A stretch of 64,000 nt of DNA. Source: Candidatus Aminicenantes bacterium (GTDB lineage Bacteria; Acidobacteriota; Aminicenantia; Aminicenantales; CALLJL01). The DNA is taken from NCBI GenBank assembly GCA_026416195.1, contig JAOAFQ010000098.1:7931-71930 (forward strand). The letters are read 5' to 3'. The translations under genes were made by a program, and so were the position numbers. Positions 1 to 13,056 of the stretch are shown here, piece by piece (within the stretch, counting starts at the first letter, position 1; every line of letters starts with the position of its first letter). The notes below the pieces were generated by a model, which worked only from the letters and a program-made list of their open reading frames with translations, was not told the origin of the DNA and made no database searches.

Positions 1-577
1 ATAAATTCAGGAGCCCCAGAAAGAATTAAAAGGACCCAAGCAAGAATGCTGATAATAAATTTTGGCGATTTAATTGGGACGTTTAAGCGATGAAGATATA
101 AGGCCCACATCATCCAGGCTATAGCAGCGATATGGTTGTAAAATTCAAAGGAAGAAAGATAAATGCCGCTGAAGAAAAACAGGCTCGCCGAAAAAAAGGC
201 GGCCTTTTTAGAAAGACCATAGGTTCCAGCTAAAAGATACATGCCCAGCCAGCCGATTAAGGGGTGGATAAGGTAATGAATTTTAAAAGCTACAAAAAAG
301 GGAAGAATCAGATAAAGCCAAGTCGTAGGGTAAAAAATAGCGGTTTTGGGATTAGCCATAAAGGGTTGGCCATTGCCATGAGCCTCTGTCCAGAGAGCAA
401 GGTGGCCTTGTTTAAGGAGAGCGGCGGCGTGCTTCCGTAAAGGAATTTCTAATAAAGTAAAATCTCGTTCATAAAAAGTATTGGCTTTAAAAAAGAAATC
501 GCGAAAAAGGAAGAGAAATAGGGCGCAAAAGATAATAAATAACCATAGGTCAACTTTTTTGGATAAAGCAAACCTCA
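1..577 (-). CDS. Polytopic membrane protein, N-terminal part only (C-terminus lies beyond the window start); possibly a GT-C/YfhO-like lipid-linked-sugar glycosyltransferase
   Basis: Reverse-strand ATG at 575-577 opens an uninterrupted frame to the window edge (MRFALSKKVDLWLFIIFCALFLFLF...HLALWTEAHGNGQPFMANPKTAIFYPTTWLYLILPFF...). It has multiple hydrophobic helices. It is absent from the ORF track only because it has no in-window stop. Confidence 0.45.
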
Positions 578-813
578 TCTCCTTTTGAATATTAATTAAA
601 GAAAGGATTAGAAATCAAATTTTATTAGCAAAAAACGGGCAGAAAAAATTTTGAAAAGGCATCTAAACTTATTAGAAAATTATAATTAGCCCAATAGCCA
701 AATTATATCCAGCAAAGATTAAAACGCTCTTTATTAGAATTAAAGATTTCCATTTTCATTTGTTAAAGAAACTTTTAATAGAACTTTGAAACATTTATCT
801 ATTTTTTTATTAA

Positions 814-1224
814 TTATTCTTTCAAAATTTCTGCACGGACAGCTCTTGGTGTGTCCTGAGGCGAAAAGCCGATAGTAAGCTTGACATGGGGATAATACTT
901 TTTTGCGATATTTTTGGTTATTTCGGCGCCCTTTTTATTATCTTCTCCTTCTATTTCAGCATCAATTACATCGATTAATGCTCCTTTAAAGAGCTCGCTT
1001 AAGCAAAAAGTGCTATAACCAAAAAACAACTTTATGTCTGACTCATATAAGATTGTGGCTCCTAAATAATCCTTTCTAATTTCAAAGCCTTCTTCCTCAT
1101 AAACATATTTTATCTTTTTTACAATCTCGTTTATTTTCTTTTCTTCAAAAATCTGAGTTTCCTTTTTTGGCCAACAAAAAACAAAGGAAACAAATATTAT
1201 TTGGATTAAAAATATAGTAATCAT
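814..1224 (-). CDS. Hypothetical small exported or membrane-anchored protein (136 aa)
   Basis: Hydrophobic N-terminus (MITIFLIQIIFVSFVFCW) followed by a soluble charged domain. No recognisable family. Confidence 0.35.
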   Translation of the reverse strand: MITIFLIQIIFVSFVFCWPKKETQIFEEKKINEIVKKIKYVYEEEGFEIRKDYLGATILYESDIKLFFGYSTFCLSELFKGALIDVIDAEIEGEDNKKGAEITKNIAKKYYPHVKLTIGFSPQDTPRAVRAEILKE

Positions 1225-1665
1225 AGGAGTTAAGGTTGTTTTTTTACTTCAACGAAACTCATTCGTCCCCCCTATAACATATTTTTTCTCAATAACATTA
1301 TCAGTAAAATATGTCAAGGAAAAGTCATAACTTGTGGTGTATTGTCTAATTAGGAGCCAACCGAGGTCGAACAATATTGGACCAGCCAAGTGGGAAAATT
1401 CTTTATGCCTCGGCTACCCAAGCAAAGTTTGGAACCGAGTAAGCGATAGGCGAATCGTTGGCCTCGTTTCTTTCTGCCTTTTTCTTACAAACGGCTAATA
1501 GTCAAAATCAACAATGGACTTATGTTTTGAGCCAAGTTGAAGAAATAGTTATGCCCTATTTTCTTGAAATAGTACTTGGGCCTGACTTCAAAAGAGGCCA
1601 ATTCTATAGCTAAGATATTTGACAATTTATCTTTTAATGAAGTAAAAATTAAAAGATCCTCAACT

Positions 1666-2547
1666 ATGTCTGAAATAAAAGAGGGCCTTAGTATTGTAAT
1701 TCCTGTTTATAATGAGGAAAAGTCAATTCATGAAACTATTGAATTTTTTAAAACGCTGATCGAAAAAACCCAAAATTTAGAAGTAATTTTCGTTGATGAT
1801 GGGTCAACTGATAAAACATCAGATATTTTAAAGAGCTTTGCTGCCGACCGAATAAGTCTTCTGATTCATGAAAGAAATAAAGGCTATGGCGCAGCTATTA
1901 AGAGCGGCGTTGCGATCGCCACCTATGATTATATTGCTATCACTGACGCTGACGGCTCTTATCCCCACGAGAAAGTTTTGGAATTATTTAAAATGTTGAT
2001 GGAGAGAAACGTAGACATGGTGGTGGGCGCAAGAATAGGCAAAGCCGTAAAAATGGGCTTTTTTAGAAAATTAGCTAAGTATTTCTTGAAAAGACTTGCT
2101 GAATTCTTGACGGATTGTTCAATTCCTGATCTTAATTCAGGGTTGAGGATTGTAAGAAAAGAGCTAATCCAAAAATTCATGAAATTCTTGCCCGATCGGT
2201 TTTCCTTTACTTCTACCTTGACTCTTTTACTTTTAACCAATAACTATAAAATTTTTTATTACCCGATTAACTATTATAGAAGAACAGGCCAATCAAAAAT
2301 AAGACCTCTTAAAGACACCTTAAATTTTATTCAATTGATTGTTAGAACAGTTATGTTTTTTAATCCCTTGAAAGTCTTTCTGCCTGTAAGCTTATTTTTT
2401 ATGTTTTTGTCGTTGGTTGTTTTAGTGGTGTCTTATCTTAGAGGGAAAATTATGGACATTACAACAATTTTGCTCTTTGTGACTGGGTTGCATCTTCTGG
2501 CTTTAGGGCTTCTGGCTGATCTTATCGATAAAAGATTAAATCGATGA
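1666..2547 (+). CDS. GT2 family glycosyltransferase, polyprenyl-phosphate sugar synthase type (DPM1/ArnC/CsbB-like) with C-terminal TM helices
   Basis: LSIVIPVYNEE...VIFVDDGSTDKT...DADGSYP motifs (DXD, GT-A fold), then two C-terminal hydrophobic helices. The ATG at 1666 gives a typical N-terminus (MSEIKEGLSIVIP). The track ORF begins at TTG 1576, so the start is uncertain. Confidence 0.8.
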   Translation: MSEIKEGLSIVIPVYNEEKSIHETIEFFKTLIEKTQNLEVIFVDDGSTDKTSDILKSFAADRISLLIHERNKGYGAAIKSGVAIATYDYIAITDADGSYPHEKVLELFKMLMERNVDMVVGARIGKAVKMGFFRKLAKYFLKRLAEFLTDCSIPDLNSGLRIVRKELIQKFMKFLPDRFSFTSTLTLLLLTNNYKIFYYPINYYRRTGQSKIRPLKDTLNFIQLIVRTVMFFNPLKVFLPVSLFFMFLSLVVLVVSYLRGKIMDITTILLFVTGLHLLALGLLADLIDKRLNR

Positions 2548-3992
2548 GAATTCTGCTAATTAATCCCCCCCGTTGGAATGAGCTGGTAGGGAAAAATCCG
2601 GCCATTATCGAAAAGCATCGAGGTTTTAATCCACCCTTGGGTCTTCTTTATCTTGCTGCTTCCATAAAAAAGAATACTTCCCATGAAATTGAAGTCCTTG
2701 ATGCTCAACCACTTCAATGGACTTATCGAGAGCTTGAAACTTATTTAAAAGGAAAAACCTATGATTTAGTCGGCATTTCGGTTATGACCTTTACCTTAAT
2801 CGATGCTTTTAAAACAGTTCGAGTCGTTAAGAGAGCTATTCCAGAGGCAAAGATTGTCTTGGGTGGGGCCCATGTTCATTTATTTCCAGAAGAAACTAAG
2901 AATCTCGAAGGGGTAGATTTTGCTTTTATGGGGGAAGCTGAGTTTTCGTTCATTAAATTTCTTTCTTGCTTTGAAAATGGCCAGAAATCTTTTGAAAATG
3001 TTCCTGGGCTTGTTTTTAATGATAACCAAGGGAAAATTATCAAGAACAACATTGAAATCATAAGAAATCTTGATGAAGTACCCTTGCCTGAACGTTCTTT
3101 AGTCGGAATTAAAAATTATAGTTCTCTCTTGAGTCGGGGAAATCTTTGTACGACCGTAATTACAAGCCGAGGCTGTCCCTTTCACTGCACTTTTTGTGAT
3201 CGTCCTCTTTCTCCCATCACCTCCATTTTTCGTTATCGAAGCGCCAAGAATGTGGTAGAAGAGATAAGAGAATGCATGGAATATGGAATCAAAGATTTTC
3301 TTTTTTATGATGATACTTTCACGGTCAATCGAGATCGGGTGCTGGCAATATGTGAAGAGATTTTGAGGCATAATTTAAAAATTAGGTGGGATGTGAGAAC
3401 AAGAGTTGATTTGGTTGATGAAGAAATACTAAGGATGATGAAAAGGGCCGGTTGCGTAGCAATTCATTATGGCGTCGAATCAGGCAATGATGATATTTTG
3501 AAAATCCTTCAAAAGGGATTTACGGTAAAAAAAGTTAAGGAAACTTTTGCCTTAACAAAAAAAATTGGCCTTGAGACCCTTGCTTACTTTATGATCGGCC
3601 TGCCCTCAGAAAACCTTAAACATATTCAAGATACCTTTGATTTAGCTAAAGAGCTTCGTCCTGACTATACTCACTTTACAATTTTCTCTCCTTATCCAGG
3701 AACTAAACTCTACTTTCTTGGGATGGAAAAGGGGATTATAAAAAGAGACATCTGGCGAGAATTCGCTCGAGATCCTAATAAAGAGTTTCGGGTGCCAGTT
3801 TGGGAAGAAAATTTTTCAAGAGATGAACTTTATGAAATAATTGTTAAATTTTATAAAAAATTCTATCTCAGGCCCCGCTATTTATTTTCCCGCCTTATTA
3901 AAACCAGATCAGTGGATGAATTAATTAAAAAGACAAAAGCAGGGGCTTCTGTCCTGACCATGAAAAAAAGTTCAGTTGACAAATTAAAATGA
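2544..3992 (+). CDS. B12-binding (class B) radical SAM enzyme
   Basis: N-terminal B12-binding-like Rossmann region, then CPFHCTFCD (CX3CX2C radical SAM cluster motif), 482 aa. The start overlaps the upstream stop (ATGA). Confidence 0.8.
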   Translation: MRILLINPPRWNELVGKNPAIIEKHRGFNPPLGLLYLAASIKKNTSHEIEVLDAQPLQWTYRELETYLKGKTYDLVGISVMTFTLIDAFKTVRVVKRAIPEAKIVLGGAHVHLFPEETKNLEGVDFAFMGEAEFSFIKFLSCFENGQKSFENVPGLVFNDNQGKIIKNNIEIIRNLDEVPLPERSLVGIKNYSSLLSRGNLCTTVITSRGCPFHCTFCDRPLSPITSIFRYRSAKNVVEEIRECMEYGIKDFLFYDDTFTVNRDRVLAICEEILRHNLKIRWDVRTRVDLVDEEILRMMKRAGCVAIHYGVESGNDDILKILQKGFTVKKVKETFALTKKIGLETLAYFMIGLPSENLKHIQDTFDLAKELRPDYTHFTIFSPYPGTKLYFLGMEKGIIKRDIWREFARDPNKEFRVPVWEENFSRDELYEIIVKFYKKFYLRPRYLFSRLIKTRSVDELIKKTKAGASVLTMKKSSVDKLK

Positions 3993-4645
3993 ATGTTGAT
4001 TACGCCATCGCAAGAGAAAAAAGAGTTGACTATCGCAACCAACTAAATAAGCGGACCAAAGAAGTTCTTAAAACTATAGGAAAATATTTGCCTTCACCGC
4101 AAATGATCATGGATTTAGGGACAGCCGAAGGAAAAATGCTGGCCTATCTCAAGAAGGCGTTTCCGAGCGCTTTTTGTTTAGGAGTAGATTCTTCTTTTCC
4201 TCTTCTTTTATACGGCAAAAAAAGATCTTCTGATTTATCGTTCATTTGGGCTGAAGCTGAAAATCTTAAGTTTATTCAAGATGAGACATTTGATGTCATT
4301 ATAGCGGCTGCAATTATCGAACATCTGGTCAGCCCCAGCCGAATGCTCCGCGAGGCTTATCGATTGCTCAAGCCAAAGGGCATAATTATTCTGACGACTC
4401 CAAATCCGTTTTGGGAGAAAATCGCTAGGGTCTTAGGTTTTATAAAGGGAGAGCATAATTATGTAATGTTTCTTTCTCAACTTGTTGACATGTGCCGAAA
4501 GGAAAATTTTTTAATCCTAGAAGCTTATGGTTTTATGGTTTCACCCATTGGAATCTGGAAAGAGGATAAAATCGAAAGCTTCTTTAAAAAGGTTAAGCTT
4601 GATAAATTTTTATTAAATCAGATGGTCGTGGCCCAAAAACCATAA
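3989..4645 (+). CDS. Class I SAM-dependent methyltransferase
   Basis: DLGTAEG (motif I), DVIIAAAIIEHL (motif II) and LKPKGIIIL (motif III). Translationally coupled (ATGA overlap) to the radical SAM gene. Confidence 0.7.
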   Translation: MNVDYAIAREKRVDYRNQLNKRTKEVLKTIGKYLPSPQMIMDLGTAEGKMLAYLKKAFPSAFCLGVDSSFPLLLYGKKRSSDLSFIWAEAENLKFIQDETFDVIIAAAIIEHLVSPSRMLREAYRLLKPKGIIILTTPNPFWEKIARVLGFIKGEHNYVMFLSQLVDMCRKENFLILEAYGFMVSPIGIWKEDKIESFFKKVKLDKFLLNQMVVAQKP

Positions 4646-4773
4646 AACTTTCTCTTATCTTCTGCGTCTAACTTCGCTCAAGGGAATGGTTAGGTCAATG
4701 GTGGCAGATATTCCAAGAAAGAAATAGTCAATTCATCTTTGTGATATAATTAGACCAAGCCGATGATGAAGGG

Positions 4774-5523
4774 ATGATAAGAGAAGGTCGATTACTTTAT
4801 TCATTACGGACAGCTTTCCTTATATTTCTTTATGGCCTGATTGTCCTTCTGATAATTCCCGTTCTTCTTATTTTTTTTATTTTGGGAATAAGAAAGCCCT
4901 TGCTTGAACTTGGTAAATGGGCCATGGGTATAGGTAAACGAATCCTTAGGATCGAGATTGAGGTTTTAGGCCTGGATAGATTTGACCCGACTGGCTCTTA
5001 TGTCTTCATGGCTAATCACTTAAGTTTTATCGATGGCCCCCTTCTTTTTTACGTCATTCCCCAAATTGTCCGCGTCTTCATCAAAAAAGAGGTTTTTCGA
5101 TTGCCTGTAGTTGGCCTTGGCATGAAGCATGTTCATTTTATTCCTGTTGACCGAAAAAGGTTGCGGGGTGGGCGGTGGAGCATAGAGCGAGCGGCTAGGT
5201 TGATGAAGGAAAGGGGGTATTCCTTCTTAATTTTCCCGGAAGGAACCAGAAGCCGTGACGGTCGACTCCAGGATTTTCGGCGAGGGGGTTTTTTCTTAGC
5301 CTTGGAAACGGCAGCGCCGATTGTTCCCATCACTCTTATTGGTACCTTTGAGCTTATGCCTCGAGGCCAGTTTCACGTAAAGCCTGGGAAAGTTAAAGTT
5401 GTTTTTCATTCGCCTGTGCCGGTTACTGGCTATAATAAGGATTCAATTGATCAGCTTATCAAGGAAGTTAGAAATCAGATTGCTTTGGCCTTACCTGAAC
5501 CATATAGGCCCCTCTCTTCTTAG
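4774..5523 (+). CDS. Lysophospholipid (1-acyl-sn-glycerol-3-phosphate, PlsC-type) acyltransferase
   Basis: N-terminal TM anchor, HX4D motif (NHLSFIDG), FPEGTRS motif. Confidence 0.75.
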   Translation: MIREGRLLYSLRTAFLIFLYGLIVLLIIPVLLIFFILGIRKPLLELGKWAMGIGKRILRIEIEVLGLDRFDPTGSYVFMANHLSFIDGPLLFYVIPQIVRVFIKKEVFRLPVVGLGMKHVHFIPVDRKRLRGGRWSIERAARLMKERGYSFLIFPEGTRSRDGRLQDFRRGGFFLALETAAPIVPITLIGTFELMPRGQFHVKPGKVKVVFHSPVPVTGYNKDSIDQLIKEVRNQIALALPEPYRPLSS

Positions 5524-5646
5524 TAATAGAATAGCCTCTTCGAAAGAGTGGTTAGGATCAATTAATCATATCCTTGAAAATTCAAGAAAAGCAGAATAAA
5601 TTGAAGCCTATAAAAAAAAGAATAAATATCTCTGGAGGAGAAGGTA

Positions 5647-6228
5647 ATGGATAAAATTTCATCAGGAGAAAGCCTTGTTGCAGCGGGAGAAGAATTGAAG
5701 CAGCTGCTTGATAAATTTATCAGAGAAAATGAAAAGGAAATTCTTCGGCTAATTGAGGCGTTGGCTGAAGCTTTAAGAAAGGGTAAAAAGATTCTTATTT
5801 TTGGGAATGGAGGCAGTGCCGCTGAAGCTCAGCATTTTGCGGCTGAGCTGGTGAATAAATTTCTTGAGGTTAGACCGCCGCTTCGGGCCATGGCCTTATC
5901 AACGGATACCTCAATTTTGACTTCTATTGGAAATGACACTTCCTTTAATTTTATTTTCAGCCGCCAGATTGAAGCTTTGGGAGATGCGGGTGATATTGCC
6001 ATAGGCTTATCGACAAGCGGACGCTCGCCTAACATCGCTGAAGCCTTAAAAGCGGCCAAAAAAAAGGGTCTAATTTCAGTTGCTATAACAGGCGAGGGCG
6101 GGGGTCTTCTTGGCTCCTTGGCTGATTATCTTATTACCGTTCCCAGCCAGTCAACACCCCGCATTCAAGAAGTTCACCTCTTTCTTCTTCATCTTCTGGC
6201 CGAATCTCTCGAAAAACTCCTTTTTTAA
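5647..6228 (+). CDS. gmhA: SIS-domain phosphoheptose isomerase (GmhA/DiaA family)
   Basis: ILIFGNGGSAAEAQHFAAEL and GLSTSGRSPNI motifs, 193 aa, GGAGG RBS 8 nt upstream. Confidence 0.7.
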   Translation: MDKISSGESLVAAGEELKQLLDKFIRENEKEILRLIEALAEALRKGKKILIFGNGGSAAEAQHFAAELVNKFLEVRPPLRAMALSTDTSILTSIGNDTSFNFIFSRQIEALGDAGDIAIGLSTSGRSPNIAEALKAAKKKGLISVAITGEGGGLLGSLADYLITVPSQSTPRIQEVHLFLLHLLAESLEKLLF

Positions 6229-6440
6229 TTTTTAATTTTTATTTTAATTTTTAGGTACCGCCTTACTTATTTACCTATTTTTTACTTCTTTTCTTCAGTT
6301 CAGTCTGCTGTTTCGCCTCACTTATAGATTAATTTTTCGCATTTAGGATGACCCACTTAGCTCCTAATTTTATAGTTGAAGGACTGAATAATAATTATTT
6401 GTGTTTTCGGCTAGATAAATTAGGTAAATGAGTGAGGTGG

Positions 6441-6469
6441 AACCTATTTGAAAGAACCTATTTGAAAGA
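6441..6469. repeat. Tandem direct repeat, two copies of (a)acctatttgaaaga
   Basis: ggaacctatttgaaagaacctatttgaaagagg lies immediately 3' of the stop of the aminotransferase-kinase fusion gene. Confidence 0.8.
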
Positions 6470-6474
6470 GGTTA

Positions 6475-8814
6475 TTAGTCGGCGGCGATTAATCGTTTGA
6501 TTTTGTCGGCACCAGCTAGGCCGCTGTTAAATAAATAGACGGTGACTGAGTCAAACAATCGCTGAAAGAAAGACCGCTGTAACTCCAATTTATCAGGTGA
6601 TAAGCCGAGAAGATGAGGATTAAAGAAGGGCTGATGCTTTCCCGACGCGATGGTTCGTTGAGCCCCGGGCGTTTCGCCTGACTCAAAAACCCTGAGGGCT
6701 TCTTCCTTGGTTAGCTCGATAAAATCTGGAGAAACAGCATCACTTCTTAGGATGAAAATCCATCGTAAAGTGTTTCGCCTGGGATAGCCTCCTTGGCCAT
6801 AGAGCCAATTAGGATCAAGCATAGCGTAGCCATTGGCCGAAGCCCGATAACAGAAAGGAGCGCCTCGATCCAGTCGGCAATCTTCGTCTCGCTGGCAATC
6901 GGCATCCTGACAGTCCTCTTTTTTGGTTACCACATTTTCGCATTTGCTTAAATCAAAAAGCGGGGCAAGGGCGGGATAAAGTTCCACGGCTGGCGTGGTT
7001 AGATAAAGCTTTCTTTCAACGCATTCAGCTACCGAGGTTTTTCCTGATAATCTAATGAAAATCAAATCATTAGCCTGAAGGCGGAAACGAGAGTCAGAAA
7101 GAAGCTCAAAGAAAAGTTCGGTTTTTCGTGTGCCCGGCGGCCCCACCAGAACCAAACCGTTGCCCTTATAATCGACGGACAGGCCTCGAAGAGCATTGGT
7201 CGTTAATTGACTTTGAGTAATCTCAATGACCATACCCAGGGCTAAGCTTCGGAGAGGCCCATAGAGATCAGTATTAATTAGAAAGGCTGTTCTCGTTTCG
7301 GGATTATAAAAGGCCCGACTCTCTCGCCCGGCAAGGCCATCAACCGCATAAATCACCCCGTGAGGTTCAATTTCAGCTTCAAGTTGGGCTGGAAACCAAT
7401 TCTCAATCCAAAAATCATTTAGATGAGAGACATTAGTTCTAAGCTGGATAATTACTCCGTTAATATTGGCGTTCCAAATATAAACTTTTTCTCGACTTAA
7501 ATGGCTTTCTACTTCAATTTGAAGGGCTTCCCGCCGTTTTAAATCAATCTCTGCCTCTATCGGTGGCGCTTTTTTCACTTTGGTTTGGACATTACTTAGA
7601 ATTACCCTTCTAGCCTTGGGCGATGGTTTAAGTTTAGCAATAGCCGCTATAATTCGATCCATGCCTTTTTCAAGATTTTCCATCGACGTGGCGTAGGAAA
7701 TACGAATATAATTATCAGCCCCGAAAGAATCCCCAGGGACAACAGCAACGCGAGCTTCCTTTAACAAATAATAGGCCAAGCCATATGAGTTGCGGATTTG
7801 CATTCCTTCAGCTTCCTTATCGTAGTAATAAGAAAAATTAGGAAAAAGGTAGAAAGCACCTTGGGGCTTGAAACAGGAAACATGAGGAATAGTTCTCAAT
7901 TTCATTAAGCAATAATTACGGCGCCGCTGAAATTCGGCCACCATCCGTTGAACTTCATACTGAGGTCCACGAAGTGCCTCAAGGCTGGCCATCTGGGAAA
8001 TTGAAGTTGGATTTGAAGTAGTATGGCTTTGAATCTTAGCCATAGCATTGATTATTTCCGCTGGTCCAAGGGTAAAGCCAATCCGCCAACCTGTCATGGA
8101 ATAGGTCTTAGAAACACCATTGACGATAATTGTTTTCTTTTTTATTTCCTCACCAAGGGAAGCAAAGCTGACAAATTCAAAATCTTCATAGACTAACTTG
8201 CCATAAATTTCATCAGCTATGACGTAAATATCTTCATGGCGAATAATTTCAGCTAAAGCCTCAAGCTGCTTGCGGTTATAAGCCGCACCTGTGGGATTGC
8301 TGGGATTATTTAGGATTAAAGCCTTGGTTGAAGGAGTTATCACCGCCTTTAATTCTTCTGGCGTCAAAACGAAACCATTCTCTTCTTTCGTCGAAACAAT
8401 AACCGGTTTTCCCTTAGCTAGCAAAACAGCTTGAGGATAAGTCACCCAATATGGGGCTGGGATGATCACCTCTTCCCCTTCATTGATTAAGGCCATAATC
8501 AGATGAAAAAGGGAGGCTTTCGCTCCACAGGAAACAATTACTTCATTAGGCTCATAATGAAGGCCATAATCATCTTTCATTCGCTTGATAATAGCTTTCT
8601 TTAAGGCTGGAATGCCTTCATTTTCAGTGTATTTAGTGAAATTTTCTTGAATAGCTCGAATGCCAGCCTGTTTGACGTTATCAGGGGTGGGAAAATCAGG
8701 TTCGCCTACGCTGAGATCAATAACATCAAGACCAGCAGCCTTCATGGCCTTGGCTTTAGCTGAAATCTTTAAAGTCGGGGAGGTACCGATTTGGATTGCT
8801 TTTTCCGAAATCAT
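6475..8814 (-). CDS. Fusion protein: class I aspartate aminotransferase (AspB-like) N-terminal domain joined to a C-terminal HprK-like P-loop kinase domain with a Cys cluster
   Basis: Residues 1 to about 395 align throughout with AspAT (VGEPDFPTP, NNPSNPTG, PLP-lysine context SKTYSMTGWRIGF, IRISYATS). The C-terminal half carries LRGLSVDYKGNGLVLVGPPGTRKTELFFELL...RLQANDLIFI. This follows the HprK C-domain pattern ([25 protein letters not shown]...LVADD). A Cys-rich stretch follows: CENVVTKKEDCQDADCQRDEDCRLDRGAPFC. Confidence 0.7.
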   Translation of the reverse strand: MISEKAIQIGTSPTLKISAKAKAMKAAGLDVIDLSVGEPDFPTPDNVKQAGIRAIQENFTKYTENEGIPALKKAIIKRMKDDYGLHYEPNEVIVSCGAKASLFHLIMALINEGEEVIIPAPYWVTYPQAVLLAKGKPVIVSTKEENGFVLTPEELKAVITPSTKALILNNPSNPTGAAYNRKQLEALAEIIRHEDIYVIADEIYGKLVYEDFEFVSFASLGEEIKKKTIIVNGVSKTYSMTGWRIGFTLGPAEIINAMAKIQSHTTSNPTSISQMASLEALRGPQYEVQRMVAEFQRRRNYCLMKLRTIPHVSCFKPQGAFYLFPNFSYYYDKEAEGMQIRNSYGLAYYLLKEARVAVVPGDSFGADNYIRISYATSMENLEKGMDRIIAAIAKLKPSPKARRVILSNVQTKVKKAPPIEAEIDLKRREALQIEVESHLSREKVYIWNANINGVIIQLRTNVSHLNDFWIENWFPAQLEAEIEPHGVIYAVDGLAGRESRAFYNPETRTAFLINTDLYGPLRSLALGMVIEITQSQLTTNALRGLSVDYKGNGLVLVGPPGTRKTELFFELLSDSRFRLQANDLIFIRLSGKTSVAECVERKLYLTTPAVELYPALAPLFDLSKCENVVTKKEDCQDADCQRDEDCRLDRGAPFCYRASANGYAMLDPNWLYGQGGYPRRNTLRWIFILRSDAVSPDFIELTKEEALRVFESGETPGAQRTIASGKHQPFFNPHLLGLSPDKLELQRSFFQRLFDSVTVYLFNSGLAGADKIKRLIAAD

Positions 8815-11308: not shown

Positions 11309-12016
11309 TTAATCAAAAAAGCGAAAGCGAAGGATATGGAAAATGGCGGCAAGACCATCTTTCCAAGTAATTTTTTTGCCTTCGCGGTAATCTCGGCCGG
11401 AATAAGAAATTGGCACTTCATAGACGCGACAGCGGAGTTTACCTACTTTAATGGTGATTTCAGGCTCAAAACCGAAGCGGTTAGCTTTGAGGCGAATTTT
11501 CTCCAGAATTTCTCGGCGAAAAACTTTATAGCAGGTTTCCATATCGGTTAGATTAAGATTAGCGCAGAGATTACAGAGAGTAGTTAAAAATTTATTCCCC
11601 ACATAGTGCCAAAAGAGGAGAACTCGATGAGGTCCGCCTAAGAAACGGCTGCCGTAAACGACATCAGCTCGGCCATCAAGGATGGGCTCAAGCAGGCGGG
11701 GATACTCACGGGGGTCATATTCTAGATCAGCATCCTGAATTAGAATAATCTCTCCTGTAGCCTGGGAAAAACCGGTCCTGAGAGCCGCTCCTTTGCCCCG
11801 ATTTTTTTCATGAAAAAGGACTTTAATCCCCTGATCAGCCATTTTTTTTAAAATTTCTCGAGTCCCATCAGTTGAACCGTCATCCACGACAATAATTTCT
11901 TTTTCTAACCCAACTTCAACCTTTTTAACCCTCTCAATTATTTCTGCGATCGTTTTTTCCTCATTATAGGCCGGAATGATAATGGATAACTTTTTAAATG
12001 AATTAACTTCCCTCAA
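11309..12016 (-). CDS. GT2 family glycosyltransferase (polyprenyl-phosphate sugar synthase/ArnC/DPM1-like, soluble catalytic domain)
   Basis: LSIIIPAYNEE, IIVVDDGSTDGT and QDADLEYDP motifs. Confidence 0.8.
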   Translation of the reverse strand: MREVNSFKKLSIIIPAYNEEKTIAEIIERVKKVEVGLEKEIIVVDDGSTDGTREILKKMADQGIKVLFHEKNRGKGAALRTGFSQATGEIILIQDADLEYDPREYPRLLEPILDGRADVVYGSRFLGGPHRVLLFWHYVGNKFLTTLCNLCANLNLTDMETCYKVFRREILEKIRLKANRFGFEPEITIKVGKLRCRVYEVPISYSGRDYREGKKITWKDGLAAIFHILRFRFFD

Positions 12017-12117: not shown

Positions 12118-13056
12118 CTAGATAAGCCCCATGGTCTTTTTGAAATAATCAATGGTTAAAGCCAGCCCTTCTTCCAAGCTGACCTTTGGCTCCCAACCTA
12201 GAAGGCTTTTTGCGAGAGTGATATCAGGGCAACGTCTTCCCGGATCATCAGGGGGGAGGGGCTTATAGCTCAGACGCGATCGGCTCTTAGTTAACTTTAG
12301 GACAAGTTCAGCAAGTTCGATTATCGGTGTCTCCACAGGGTTGCCGAGATTAATTGGGCCAGTTATCTTTTCGGTGGTCATCATTTTGATTAAGCCTTCA
12401 ATCATATCAGAGACATAGCAGAATGAGCGAGTCTGTTGGCCATTGCCATAAATCGTTAAATCTTCGCCTCGAAGTGCTTGAACGATAAAATTACTCACGA
12501 CTCGGCCATCGTTAATCGCCATTCTCGGTCCATAAGTGTTAAAAATTCTGACAATCCGTATATCAACCTTATTTTGGCGATGATAATCCATCATTAAGGT
12601 TTCGGCTACCCTTTTGCCTTCATCATAGCAACTGCGGACACCAATCGGATTAACGTTTCCCCAATAGCTTTCAGGTTGGGGATGAACCTGAGCATCGCCA
12701 TAGACTTCAGAGGAAGAAGCAAGCAGGATTCTGGCCTTAGTTCTTTTAGCCAAACCAAGCATATTAATTGTTCCCATAACATTAGTTTTAACGGTTTTAA
12801 TGGCATTAACTTGATAGTGAATAGGTGAGGCTGGACATGCCAAGTGATAAATTTCATCGACTTCAACAAAGAAGGGATGAATTATGTCATGTCTAATCAG
12901 TTCAAAATAGGGATGATTAAAGAGATGGCGGATGTTATCCTTGGAGCCGGAAAAAAAATTATCTAGGCAGATAACATCGGCCTTTTCTTCAAGGAGACGA
13001 TCACAGAGGTGGCTGCCCAGAAAACCTGCTCCACCAGTTACCAGAATTCGTTTCAT
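12118..13056 (-). CDS. UDP-glucuronate decarboxylase (UDP-xylose synthase/ArnA C-domain-like SDR)
   Basis: [18 protein letters not shown] Rossmann motif, YxxxK context. The sequence matches the UXS1/ArnA-decarboxylase family throughout (312 aa). Confidence 0.75.

Follow-up and report, generated by a model that had tools for sequence, protein, structure and literature searches.

What might a cobalamin-type radical S-adenosylmethionine (SAM) enzyme be doing between a membrane-anchored glycosyltransferase and a methyltransferase? The question is raised by three overlapping genes near one end of a 64,000-nucleotide stretch of DNA from a Candidatus Aminicenantes bacterium (contig JAOAFQ010000098.1; the whole stretch is called the window below). 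On its forward strand lie, in order, the genes for a family 2 glycosyltransferase (GT2; 1666-2547) of the polyprenyl-phosphate type (ArnC/GtrB/DPMS-like), with a GT-A domain followed by a C-terminal two-helix anchor; a 482-amino-acid class B radical SAM enzyme (2544-3992), in which Pfam recognises B12-binding and Radical_SAM domains; and a 218-amino-acid class I SAM-dependent methyltransferase (3989-4645), which matches Methyltransf_23, 11, 25 and 31. On the reverse strand, the first 192 codons of a YfhO/DUF6044-like polytopic membrane protein of the GT-C clan (3-578, ATG at 578) are truncated by the window edge.

Direct reading of the sequence shows the trio to be joined by two ATGA overlaps, with the ATG of the radical SAM gene (2544-2546) lying on the TGA of the GT2 gene (2545-2547), and the ATG of the methyltransferase gene (3989-3991) on the TGA of the radical SAM gene (3990-3992). 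Both couplings had been proposed in the initial annotation of positions 1-6228, and every gene listed there is present. On the strength of homology and gene context, we judge it slightly better than an even chance that the trio and the YfhO-like protein constitute an extracytoplasmic glycosylation system of the ArnC/GtrB-plus-GT-C kind, in which the radical SAM enzyme and the methyltransferase tailor a polyprenyl-phosphate-linked sugar. This keeps the annotation's coupling of the three genes with a GT-C/YfhO partner, and parts from it in leaving out two downstream genes (PlsC and GmhA) and in setting aside a hopanoid alternative.

The gene trio recurs across bacterial phyla

A scan of species-representative genomes yielded 70 distinct loci, 67 of which encode a radical SAM protein at least 49% identical to that of the window. 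These 67 loci span at least eight phyla (Aminicenantes, Omnitrophota, Nitrospinota, Planctomycetota/Phycisphaerae, Thermodesulfobacteriota, Acidobacteriota, Binatia, Anaerolineae, Myxococcota and several alphaproteobacterial orders) and include one cultured strain, Roseospira navarrensis DSM 15114. GT2 partners were scored by tblastn (35-75% identity) within 3.5 kb of the radical SAM gene, and a well-flanked subset comprised the 32 loci in which each side extended for 5 kb or more. An orthologous GT2 lay within this distance in 53 of the 67 loci (27 of the 32 well-flanked ones); in 39 of the 67 the two genes were immediate neighbours, no more than 450 nt apart, and frequently overlapped by 4 nt as in the window. 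Loci with the pair include those of Aminicenantes, Nitrospinota, Planctomycetota, Thermodesulfobacteriota, Acidobacteriota, Alphaproteobacteria and others. Furthermore, a methyltransferase orthologue was found within 1.7 kb of the radical SAM gene in 30 loci (16 of the well-flanked subset), and a PMT_2-like or YfhO-like polytopic protein in at least 27 (at least 14 of the subset), these GT-C neighbour counts being lower bounds because open reading frame (ORF) calling was crude in GC-rich loci. Since the GT2-radical SAM pair recurs in 53 of 67 related loci from many phyla, the arrangement is far beyond chance. Official gene calls also give GT2-radical SAM-methyltransferase in a complete Aminicenantes genome and PMT_2-GT2-radical SAM in Planctomycetota.

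In addition, the methyltransferase is found fused to the C-terminus of the radical SAM enzyme, in P0113 (748 aa, 54% identity) and in the sister-clade protein P0162 (693 aa, 37%). No GT2-radical SAM fusion was seen among the homologues, whose fusions were confined to radical SAM-methyltransferase, one radical SAM-GT4/GT1 and tandem radical SAM proteins. The three-gene coupling noted at the outset is thus borne out by its recurrence across phyla and supported by the methyltransferase fusions.

The same logic extends beyond the family itself. An exhaustive profile search with the radical SAM protein returned 22,991 cluster representatives at E values up to 1e-30; the best 150 of these were full-length proteins of about 470 aa, 143 of them at 30-50% identity and 2 reaching 50%. 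The search of the representative library recovered mostly sister clades (37-44% identity) and few true family members, because 50% clustering had left fragments as the family's representatives. All three sister-clade loci that we inspected, with radical SAM proteins 41-43% identical to that of the window, display the same cluster logic: one combines a GT2, a methyltransferase, PMT_2, two to three B12-radical SAM proteins, LPG_synthase_TM and Wzx; another has a polytopic protein and a GT2-radical SAM pair with a 4-nt overlap, followed by a GT2, a hexapeptide acyltransferase and UbiA; and the third has PMT_2, a methyltransferase, a TPR protein, a second methyltransferase, the radical SAM gene and LPG_synthase_TM. 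Plasmid-borne homologues of Solidesulfovibrio and Lawsonia (28-35% identity) likewise lie in glycan clusters. Given these sister-clade and plasmid contexts, the link between this branch of radical SAM enzymes and genes for lipid-carrier glycosylation is general rather than a quirk of one genome.

Several of these loci have features of their own. The 27-kb Lawsonia intracellularis plasmid NZ_CP107057.1 carries a GT2, DUF2304, a SIS-domain protein, two radical SAM genes, another GT2, a HAD-IIIA hydrolase and seven annotated class I methyltransferase coding sequences, two of them short and adjacent and possibly one split gene; this looks like a cluster for a heavily methylated, perhaps heptose-containing, glycan in an obligate intracellular pathogen. 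Sister clades also contain tandem B12-radical SAM polypeptides of two to four modules and 926-2096 aa (P0164, P0274, P0286, P0238, P0221, P0273 and P0152), and one radical SAM protein (P0152) is interrupted by an intein. By official gene calls an Omnitrophota locus has no GT2, and 7 kb upstream a B12-radical SAM protein is fused to a GT4/GT1 glycosyltransferase (L003:1-913 / L020:142-2913; 915-923 aa), its radical SAM part being 32% identical to the window enzyme; the fusion gene adjoins a Bac_transf sugar-phosphate transferase. Finally, a 5.6-kb contig binned as 'Candidatus Pacearchaeota archaeon' (JAFCEO010000022.1) carries a GT2-radical SAM-methyltransferase operon ending in a PMT_2-like gene of the group designated c4, with a radical SAM protein 67% identical to ours, and is probably a misbinned bacterial contig.

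The glycosyltransferase resembles polyprenyl-phosphate sugar synthases

The GT2 reading frame runs from 1576 to 2547, and the likely true start is the ATG at 1666, which gives 293 aa as compared with 286-292 aa in Aminicenantes-type orthologues. The protein matches Pfam Glycos_transf_2 (PF00535) at 117.8 bits. Its best NCBIfam matches, AglJ (114 bits), PgfS (84.7), a Dol-P-hexose transferase (79.2), ArnC (76.2) and PpgS (67.2), are all polyprenyl-phosphate sugar synthases and all fall below their equivalog cut-offs (529 bits in the case of ArnC). Among solved structures the best full-length match is ArnC, with residues 8-287 aligning to 10-295 of 9hwj at 66.2 bits, membrane anchor included; the alignment to GtrB (5ekp) is also full length and takes in the anchor. 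In line with this, hydropathy analysis predicts two hydrophobic segments some 64 and 31 residues from the C-terminus, as in nearly all partner GT2s, so that the C-terminal transmembrane hairpin described in the initial annotation is recovered by two routes.

In GT2 enzymes of the ArnC/GtrB/DPMS type the DXD motif's leading aspartate is the proposed catalytic base. The window protein has D94-A-D96 in alignment with D100-A-D102 of ArnC, and the motif is kept in 43-44 of 45 partner GT2s. Of the catalytic or substrate-binding residues named in the ArnC structure paper (PMC12690121), the window protein has equivalents of D48, N77, D100, D102, R128, R137 and R205, which vary little or not at all across the 45 partners. 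The acceptor-phosphate arginines R128 and R137, together with R205, correspond to R123, R134 and R206 of the window GT2, which are conserved in 45, 43 and 45 of the 45 partners, respectively; the equivalent of ArnC R131 is a valine. We infer from these similarities that the GT2 charges polyprenyl phosphate with a sugar taken from a nucleotide sugar, as its earlier assignment to the polyprenyl-phosphate sugar synthases had implied.

The radical SAM enzyme belongs to a conserved class B family

The radical SAM protein, 100% identical to an NCBI entry assigned to Candidatus Aminicenantes, scores 68.6 bits against Pfam B12-binding (PF02310; cut-off 32.1) and 102.6 bits against Radical_SAM (PF04055), and carries the motif SRGCPFHCTFC at residues 208-218; the class B assignment with CPFHCTFC made from the sequence thus holds on both domains and motif. 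The cysteines of the CX3CX2C motif (C211, C215 and C218) are invariant in 116 family members and in 127 sister-clade sequences, and mean column identity within the family is 64% in a 16-sequence alignment drawn from several phyla. Against NCBIfam the best matches were HpnJ (224.7 bits; cut-off 577.6) and BchE (197.4; cut-off 481), followed by ApyD (170.7), AprD4 (152.8), ladderane radical SAM (142.3) and HpnR (112.9; cut-off 650). No NCBIfam equivalog was above cut-off, and no NCBIfam model exists for the family. The comparison with curated subfamilies that the annotation had called for therefore places HpnJ, HpnR and every other equivalog below threshold, and, as judged by sequence, the enzyme represents a highly conserved class B family that falls under no curated family.

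Its AlphaFold2 (AF2) model (predicted local distance difference test score, pLDDT, 83.9; predicted template modelling score, pTM, 0.85) has AprD4 as the closest solved structure (TM-score 0.70-0.76), followed by TsrM, MgmA, OxsB, CysS and TokK; AprD4 (6fd2) is also the nearest solved radical SAM structure by sequence (134 bits over residues 152-399). In class B enzymes, base-off cobalamin binding has no diagnostic sequence motif, and AprD4 is listed as unrelated to the true B12-dependent enzymes (PMC12931638). The domain match and the predicted class B fold together mark the window protein as a putative cobalamin-binding enzyme. Two further cysteines, C270 and C304, are shared by all 116 family members; sister clades retain them at 83-89%, and HpnJ has Ala and Leu at these sites. 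A third, C244, shows 96% conservation. An N-terminal charged loop (R10, E13, G16, K17, N18, E23, R26 and N29) is invariant in the GT2-linked family only, is not kept in sister clades, and has low confidence in the AlphaFold model. On conservation, C270, C304 and this loop might bear on substrate binding or hydrogen-atom transfer. No membrane segment is predicted in either the radical SAM enzyme or the methyltransferase. As for the host's capacity to supply the cofactor, methylmalonyl-CoA mutase is a B12-dependent family and a gene for it lies in the window, so the organism probably uses cobalamin.

The closeness of AprD4 brings in one alternative, namely that the radical SAM enzyme and the methyltransferase come first in the pathway, modifying a soluble nucleotide sugar or another small precursor, after which the GT2 loads the modified sugar for the GT-C enzyme. 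AprD4, the sugar-modifying relative with the closest solved structure, itself works on a soluble aminoglycoside intermediate; the neighbourhood evidence applies equally to this order of events, and the GT2-first gene order says nothing about reaction order. On the other hand, genes for nucleotide-sugar biosynthesis show no consistent linkage to the module, a UXS-like short-chain dehydrogenase/reductase (SDR) occurring in 7 loci only, while the tight translational coupling of GT2 and radical SAM genes and the HpnJ and Cds precedents favour action after loading. Tailoring on the lipid carrier is moreover known from ArnD and DprE1/E2, which again favours a post-loading step. We therefore regard prior action on a soluble sugar as distinctly unlikely.

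Relationship to HpnJ and hopanoid biosynthesis

The annotation had also raised a hopanoid (HpnI/HpnJ-like) alternative, whereby the radical SAM enzyme would be a true HpnJ, or of the HpnP/HpnR type, tailoring the side chains of bacteriohopanepolyols. HpnJ is indeed its top NCBIfam match, covering it end to end (2-473 against 2-466 of 472), and HpnR is matched too. Both nevertheless score far under the cut-offs given above, and the window enzyme shares 30% identity over residues 70-448 with a true HpnJ from a Paraburkholderia plasmid. HpnI, the partner of true HpnJ, has no similarity to the window GT2 (E 0.79), and no gene for squalene-hopene cyclase (SHC), HpnH, HpnI or HpnK was found in the 64-kb window or, across the 67 loci, among the conserved neighbours, nor was any other hpn gene found in the window. 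In published surveys, HpnJ domains are confined to genomes that encode SHC and HpnH as well (bioRxiv 10.1101/2025.07.29.667474). A flippase-like neighbour present in some of the loci scores 27.6 bits against HpnL (cut-off 195.65). We accordingly rejected HpnJ as the identity of the enzyme; the hopanoid side-chain reading is largely refuted and can be given hardly any credence.

True hpnJ overlaps hpnI by 4 nt and lies beside a gene for an LPG_synthase-domain protein. By analogy, this parallel layout marks a glycosyltransferase and a radical enzyme acting on a lipid-bound sugar as an established design, and it lends some colour to a wider alternative: a membrane-lipid head-group pathway analogous to that of the HpnI/HpnJ bacteriohopanetetrol cyclitol ether or of archaeal calditol synthase. 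In such a pathway the GT2 would glycosylate a resident lipid, the radical SAM enzyme would contract or rearrange the ring to give a cyclitol-like head group, the methyltransferase would decorate it, and the polytopic neighbours would be flippases or transporters. HpnJ is the best curated match over the whole length of the enzyme, the hpnJ/hpnI overlap with its LPG_synthase-domain neighbour mirrors loci with a radical SAM gene, a GT2 and a PF03706 gene, HpnJ and Cds have been proposed to act on lipid-bound sugars (PMC13459092), and a PlsC acyltransferase gene lies 3' of the trio in the window. However, the GT2 is of the ArnC/GtrB type and not related to HpnI, the radical SAM enzyme is only 30% identical to HpnJ and far under its cut-off, the PlsC adjacency is confined to Aminicenantes, and no HpnK-like deacetylase occurs among the conserved neighbours. 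Furthermore, bona fide GT-C families (PMT_2 and YfhO) recur by the pair, pointing to a donor-and-transferase logic. On this balance a head-group pathway seems unlikely.

Candidate GT-C partners and flippases

The glycosylation reading calls for a transferase, for which the truncated membrane protein at the window start is the local candidate. The 192-aa fragment alone gives a sub-threshold match to DUF6044 (17.7 bits; cut-off 27), and a homology search with it returned 17 short fragments and nothing else. It is, however, 68% identical to a 791-aa orthologue encoded in another Aminicenantes locus (L015:1543-3918), a protein with some 12 predicted hydrophobic segments. Pfam YfhO (PF09586) is matched by each of the three full-length orthologues (best E 7.3e-12), by the L015 protein at 30.0 bits against a cut-off of 28.5 and with the match confined to its C-terminal end, where it also weakly matches the YfhO-type glycosyltransferases PgfM1 and PgfM2. 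DUF6044 is matched by five of six members of the family alignment. An AF2 model of the N-terminal 313 aa reached a pLDDT of just 53.9, and no match to the YfhO-like protein was found in a PDB profile search or by tblastn against plasmids; with a model of such low confidence, the putative GT-C fold is drawn from the Pfam matches of the orthologues. These make the window-start protein a candidate periplasmic transferase of YfhO-like type. On a 362-kb Aminicenantes contig (L021:13818-16124) the YfhO-like gene is present as three consecutive ORFs of 313, 252 and 192 aa, reflecting either a pseudogene or frameshift errors in a long-read assembly.

Elsewhere other polytopic proteins occupy the neighbourhood. 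A Planctomycetota group and a TPR-bearing group both score above the threshold of Pfam PMT_2 (35.6 and 31.7 bits), and two further recurrent groups are tied to the PMT_2 groups by hhalign at 73-97% probability. A PF03706/TIGR00374 flippase-like protein (TIGR00374, 105 bits) is encoded in nine loci. The PMT_2-like group c4, found 3' of the methyltransferase gene in 12 relatives, is absent from the whole 64-kb window, where the sole GT-C candidate near the trio is the YfhO-like protein. The suggestion of a GT-C partner as in CsbB/YfhO thus finds backing in the Pfam matches of the orthologues and in the recurrence of PMT_2-like, YfhO-like and flippase-like neighbours.

A model for tailoring of a lipid-linked sugar

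The findings can be combined in a model for lipid-carrier glycosylation in four steps. The GT2, by homology, would load polyprenyl phosphate with a sugar, drawn from a nucleotide-sugar donor, at the cytoplasmic face of the inner membrane. At the same face, the radical SAM enzyme would alter the lipid-linked sugar by radical chemistry and the class I methyltransferase would add an O- or N-methyl group; placing this tailoring on the lipid carrier follows from the gene coupling, the fusions and the need for SAM and reductant, which are cytoplasmic. The tailored lipid-linked sugar would then cross the membrane, perhaps by means of the PF03706 flippase-like protein in those loci that encode it, the window not being among them. 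Finally, the sugar would be passed to an envelope glycan or protein acceptor by a GT-C protein, of YfhO-like type in the window and of PMT_2-like type, in some cases with TPR repeats, at other loci. The window encodes lipopolysaccharide (LPS) machinery (LpxK, an LpxL-like acyltransferase and an LptC/LptA-domain protein), and the host is a diderm; because of this, the envelope acceptor cannot be assumed to be teichoic acid.

With regard to the chemistry, most characterised class B radical SAM enzymes are C-methyltransferases (PMC12931638), and our leading guess for the radical step is C-methylation at an unactivated carbon, the alternatives being an HpnJ/OxsB-like rearrangement or an AprD4-like deoxygenation. 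A multiply methylated sugar would fit the several radical SAM paralogues, the tandem radical SAM polypeptides and the extra class I methyltransferases seen in related clusters. A more particular version, that this enzyme would be the first of the radical SAM type known to work on a polyprenyl-phosphate-linked sugar and that it performs a skeletal rearrangement like those of HpnJ, Cds and OxsB (ring contraction to a cyclitol or furanose-like unit), we consider to have a slim chance of being correct.

A number of observations weigh against lipid-carrier glycosylation with a tailoring step. A nearby GT2 is missing in 5 of the 32 well-flanked loci, and GT-C-like neighbours were detected in just 14 of the 32, itself a lower bound. 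Within the window there is no GtrA/GtcA-like small flippase, nor any ORF of up to 200 aa with three or more hydrophobic segments. In the GT2, the metal-coordinating LQ that follows the DXD motif in ArnC, GtrB and DPMS (DADLQ[NDH]) is replaced by G-(T/S): the window protein has DADGSY and the partner family the consensus DADG(T/S)Y, which from the alignment is a family-specific deviation. The case for C-methylation in particular is weakened because neither the best curated matches (HpnJ and BchE) nor the closest structure (AprD4) is a methylase, and both the substrate and the reaction type of the radical SAM family are so far inferred only.

Comparison with known systems

Three-component systems consisting of a GT2 (CsbB/GtlA), a flippase (GtcA) and a GT-C enzyme (YfhO/GtlB) are known from Bacillus and Listeria (PMC5836110, PMC7389260). 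CsbB/GtcA/YfhO and the Streptococcus mutans system PgfS/PgfM1/PgfM2 share with the window a GtrB/ArnC-type anchored GT2 beside a YfhO-family polytopic protein, and in the case of Pgf the likeness extends to the sequences, PgfS being the second-best NCBIfam match of the GT2 and PgfM1/PgfM2 weakly matching the C-terminus of the YfhO-like orthologue. In neither is there a radical SAM enzyme or methyltransferase, the lipid-linked sugar being used unmodified, and the small GtcA/GtrA-type flippase of the CsbB system has no counterpart in the window. ArnC (9hwj, 9bhc and 8vxh; PMC12690121) resembles the window GT2 in its full-length match, DXD motif and acceptor-phosphate arginines, and differs in having DADLQN in place of DADG(T/S)Y and in an equivalog score far below cut-off. 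The tailoring enzyme of the Arn pathway is a deformylase, whereas here it would be a B12-radical SAM enzyme with a methyltransferase, and neither ArnA nor ArnB is encoded beside the trio. ArnD nonetheless provides a precedent for tailoring on the carrier, since it deformylates the sugar on undecaprenyl phosphate before transfer by a GT-C enzyme.

The HpnI/HpnJ/HpnK/HpnL system is alike in that HpnJ is the nearest curated radical SAM enzyme, glycosyltransferase and radical SAM genes overlap by 4 nt and a PF03706 membrane protein is encoded nearby; HpnJ and the module proposed here also have in common the logic of radical chemistry on a sugar bound to lipid. The system differs in its unrelated glycosyltransferase HpnI, in HpnK and hopanoid genes that are absent here, and in the Ala and Leu that HpnJ has in place of C270 and C304. 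AprD4, the radical SAM 1,2-diol dehydratase of apramycin biosynthesis, is closest in sequence and fold among solved structures and has a sugar substrate. Its sequence match, however, is limited to the radical SAM core, whereas the N-terminal domain of the window enzyme matches B12-binding well, and no AprD3-like reductase partner is conserved at the family's loci. GenK, GenD1 and Fms7 are cobalamin-dependent radical SAM sugar C-methyltransferases (PMC12931638). They resemble our enzyme, by description only, in belonging to class B, and alkylate unactivated sugar carbons, as our enzyme may; they differ in acting on soluble aminoglycoside intermediates in actinomycete secondary metabolism. GenK-type enzymes often work beside class I methyltransferases, and we know of none coupled to a polyprenyl-phosphate GT2 or GT-C enzyme.

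Neighbouring genes

Downstream of the trio lie genes for a 249-aa PlsC-type (LPLAT) acyltransferase (4774-5523, forward strand; PF01553, 97.8 bits), with the HX4D motif HLSFID, and for a 193-aa GmhA-like SIS-domain protein (5647-6228, forward strand), a putative sedoheptulose-7-phosphate isomerase matching SIS_2 at 98 bits. The latter scores 182.6 bits against TIGR00441 (cut-off 209.45) and 192.4 against NF010546 (cut-off 276); as these scores are near but under the cut-offs and the alignment is full length, 'GmhA-like' is a safe label. Both genes had been counted as part of the cluster, a membership that we reject. PlsC occurs near the trio only in the Aminicenantes loci L007, L015 and L019, in varying order and orientation, and the GmhA-like gene only in L007, L015 and L021, also Aminicenantes; an aminotransferase fusion and a flotillin likewise accompany the trio in Aminicenantes loci only. 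The order in L015, for example, is PlsC, GmhA, YfhO-like, c64, GT2, radical SAM, methyltransferase and c4. In addition, an extended -10 promoter-like element, TGaTATAAT (4742-4750, forward strand), seen by direct reading, precedes the PlsC start codon by 23 nt and suggests that PlsC and GmhA are transcribed apart from the trio. The element is unlisted in our consensus promoter scan, which demands a -35 element; for positions 1-6600 the terminator/promoter scan found fewer sites than in shuffled sequence and was uninformative. Given the restriction to Aminicenantes, the changing order and orientation and the extended -10 site, we treat the two as separate housekeeping genes, probably outside the module, with PlsC probably serving phospholipid synthesis and the GmhA-like protein heptose supply to the LPS core. 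A caveat is that the distant Lawsonia plasmid cluster (28% identity) combines a SIS protein and a HAD-IIIA hydrolase with radical SAM and methyltransferase genes.

Between the membrane protein and the GT2 lies an ORF of 136 aa on the reverse strand (814-1224), of uncertain status, with an N-terminal hydrophobic segment. It has no significant Pfam or NCBIfam match, was a singleton in neighbour clustering across the 70 loci and is probably outside the module; its position is held in L015 and L019 by the polytopic protein c64, of 514-521 aa.

Further along the window, residues 1-396 of a 779-aa protein (6475-8814, reverse strand) form a class I/II aspartate aminotransferase; the remaining 380 or so residues make up a C-terminal domain with no Pfam or PDB match, a P-loop-like GPPGTRKTE and a resemblance to HPr kinase at no better than E=0.33. 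The same fusion is present in the Aminicenantes loci L007, L010 and L015. A second GT2, soluble, of 235 aa and AglJ/ArnC/PpgS-like (11309-12016, reverse strand), lies beside a UDP-glucuronate-decarboxylase-like SDR (12118-13056, reverse strand), the pair adjoining genes for RNase PH, an LpxL-like protein and LpxK. These two may represent a separate route for a lipid-linked pentose or LPS modification. In the Nitrospinaceae locus L023 a similar GT2 of 230 aa lies beside a 592-aa protein with seven transmembrane segments.

Significance

Lipid-carrier periplasmic glycosylation of the Arn, Gtr, CsbB/YfhO and Pgf kinds is well understood, and to our knowledge no described version of it includes a radical SAM enzyme. 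Full-text literature searches found no description of a B12-radical SAM enzyme coupled to ArnC/GtrB-type GT2, YfhO or GT-C enzymes, and recent reviews on lipid-modifying and on B12-dependent radical SAM enzymes (PMC12931638) contain nothing comparable. The locus therefore looks like a known surface-glycosylation scheme with a radical sugar-tailoring step that has not previously been described. If so, lipid-linked sugars would be a new class of substrate for radical SAM chemistry, and a large unannotated slice of the class B superfamily, put by its reviewers at more than 220,000 members, would be defined. Were the skeletal-rearrangement version to prove right, it would reveal an envelope sugar or head group of a hitherto unknown class in many uncultured phyla and some Alphaproteobacteria, beyond the hopanoid producers. 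More generally, the tailoring reading, if true, would add a new type of envelope modification to the biology of abundant sediment and marine bacteria.

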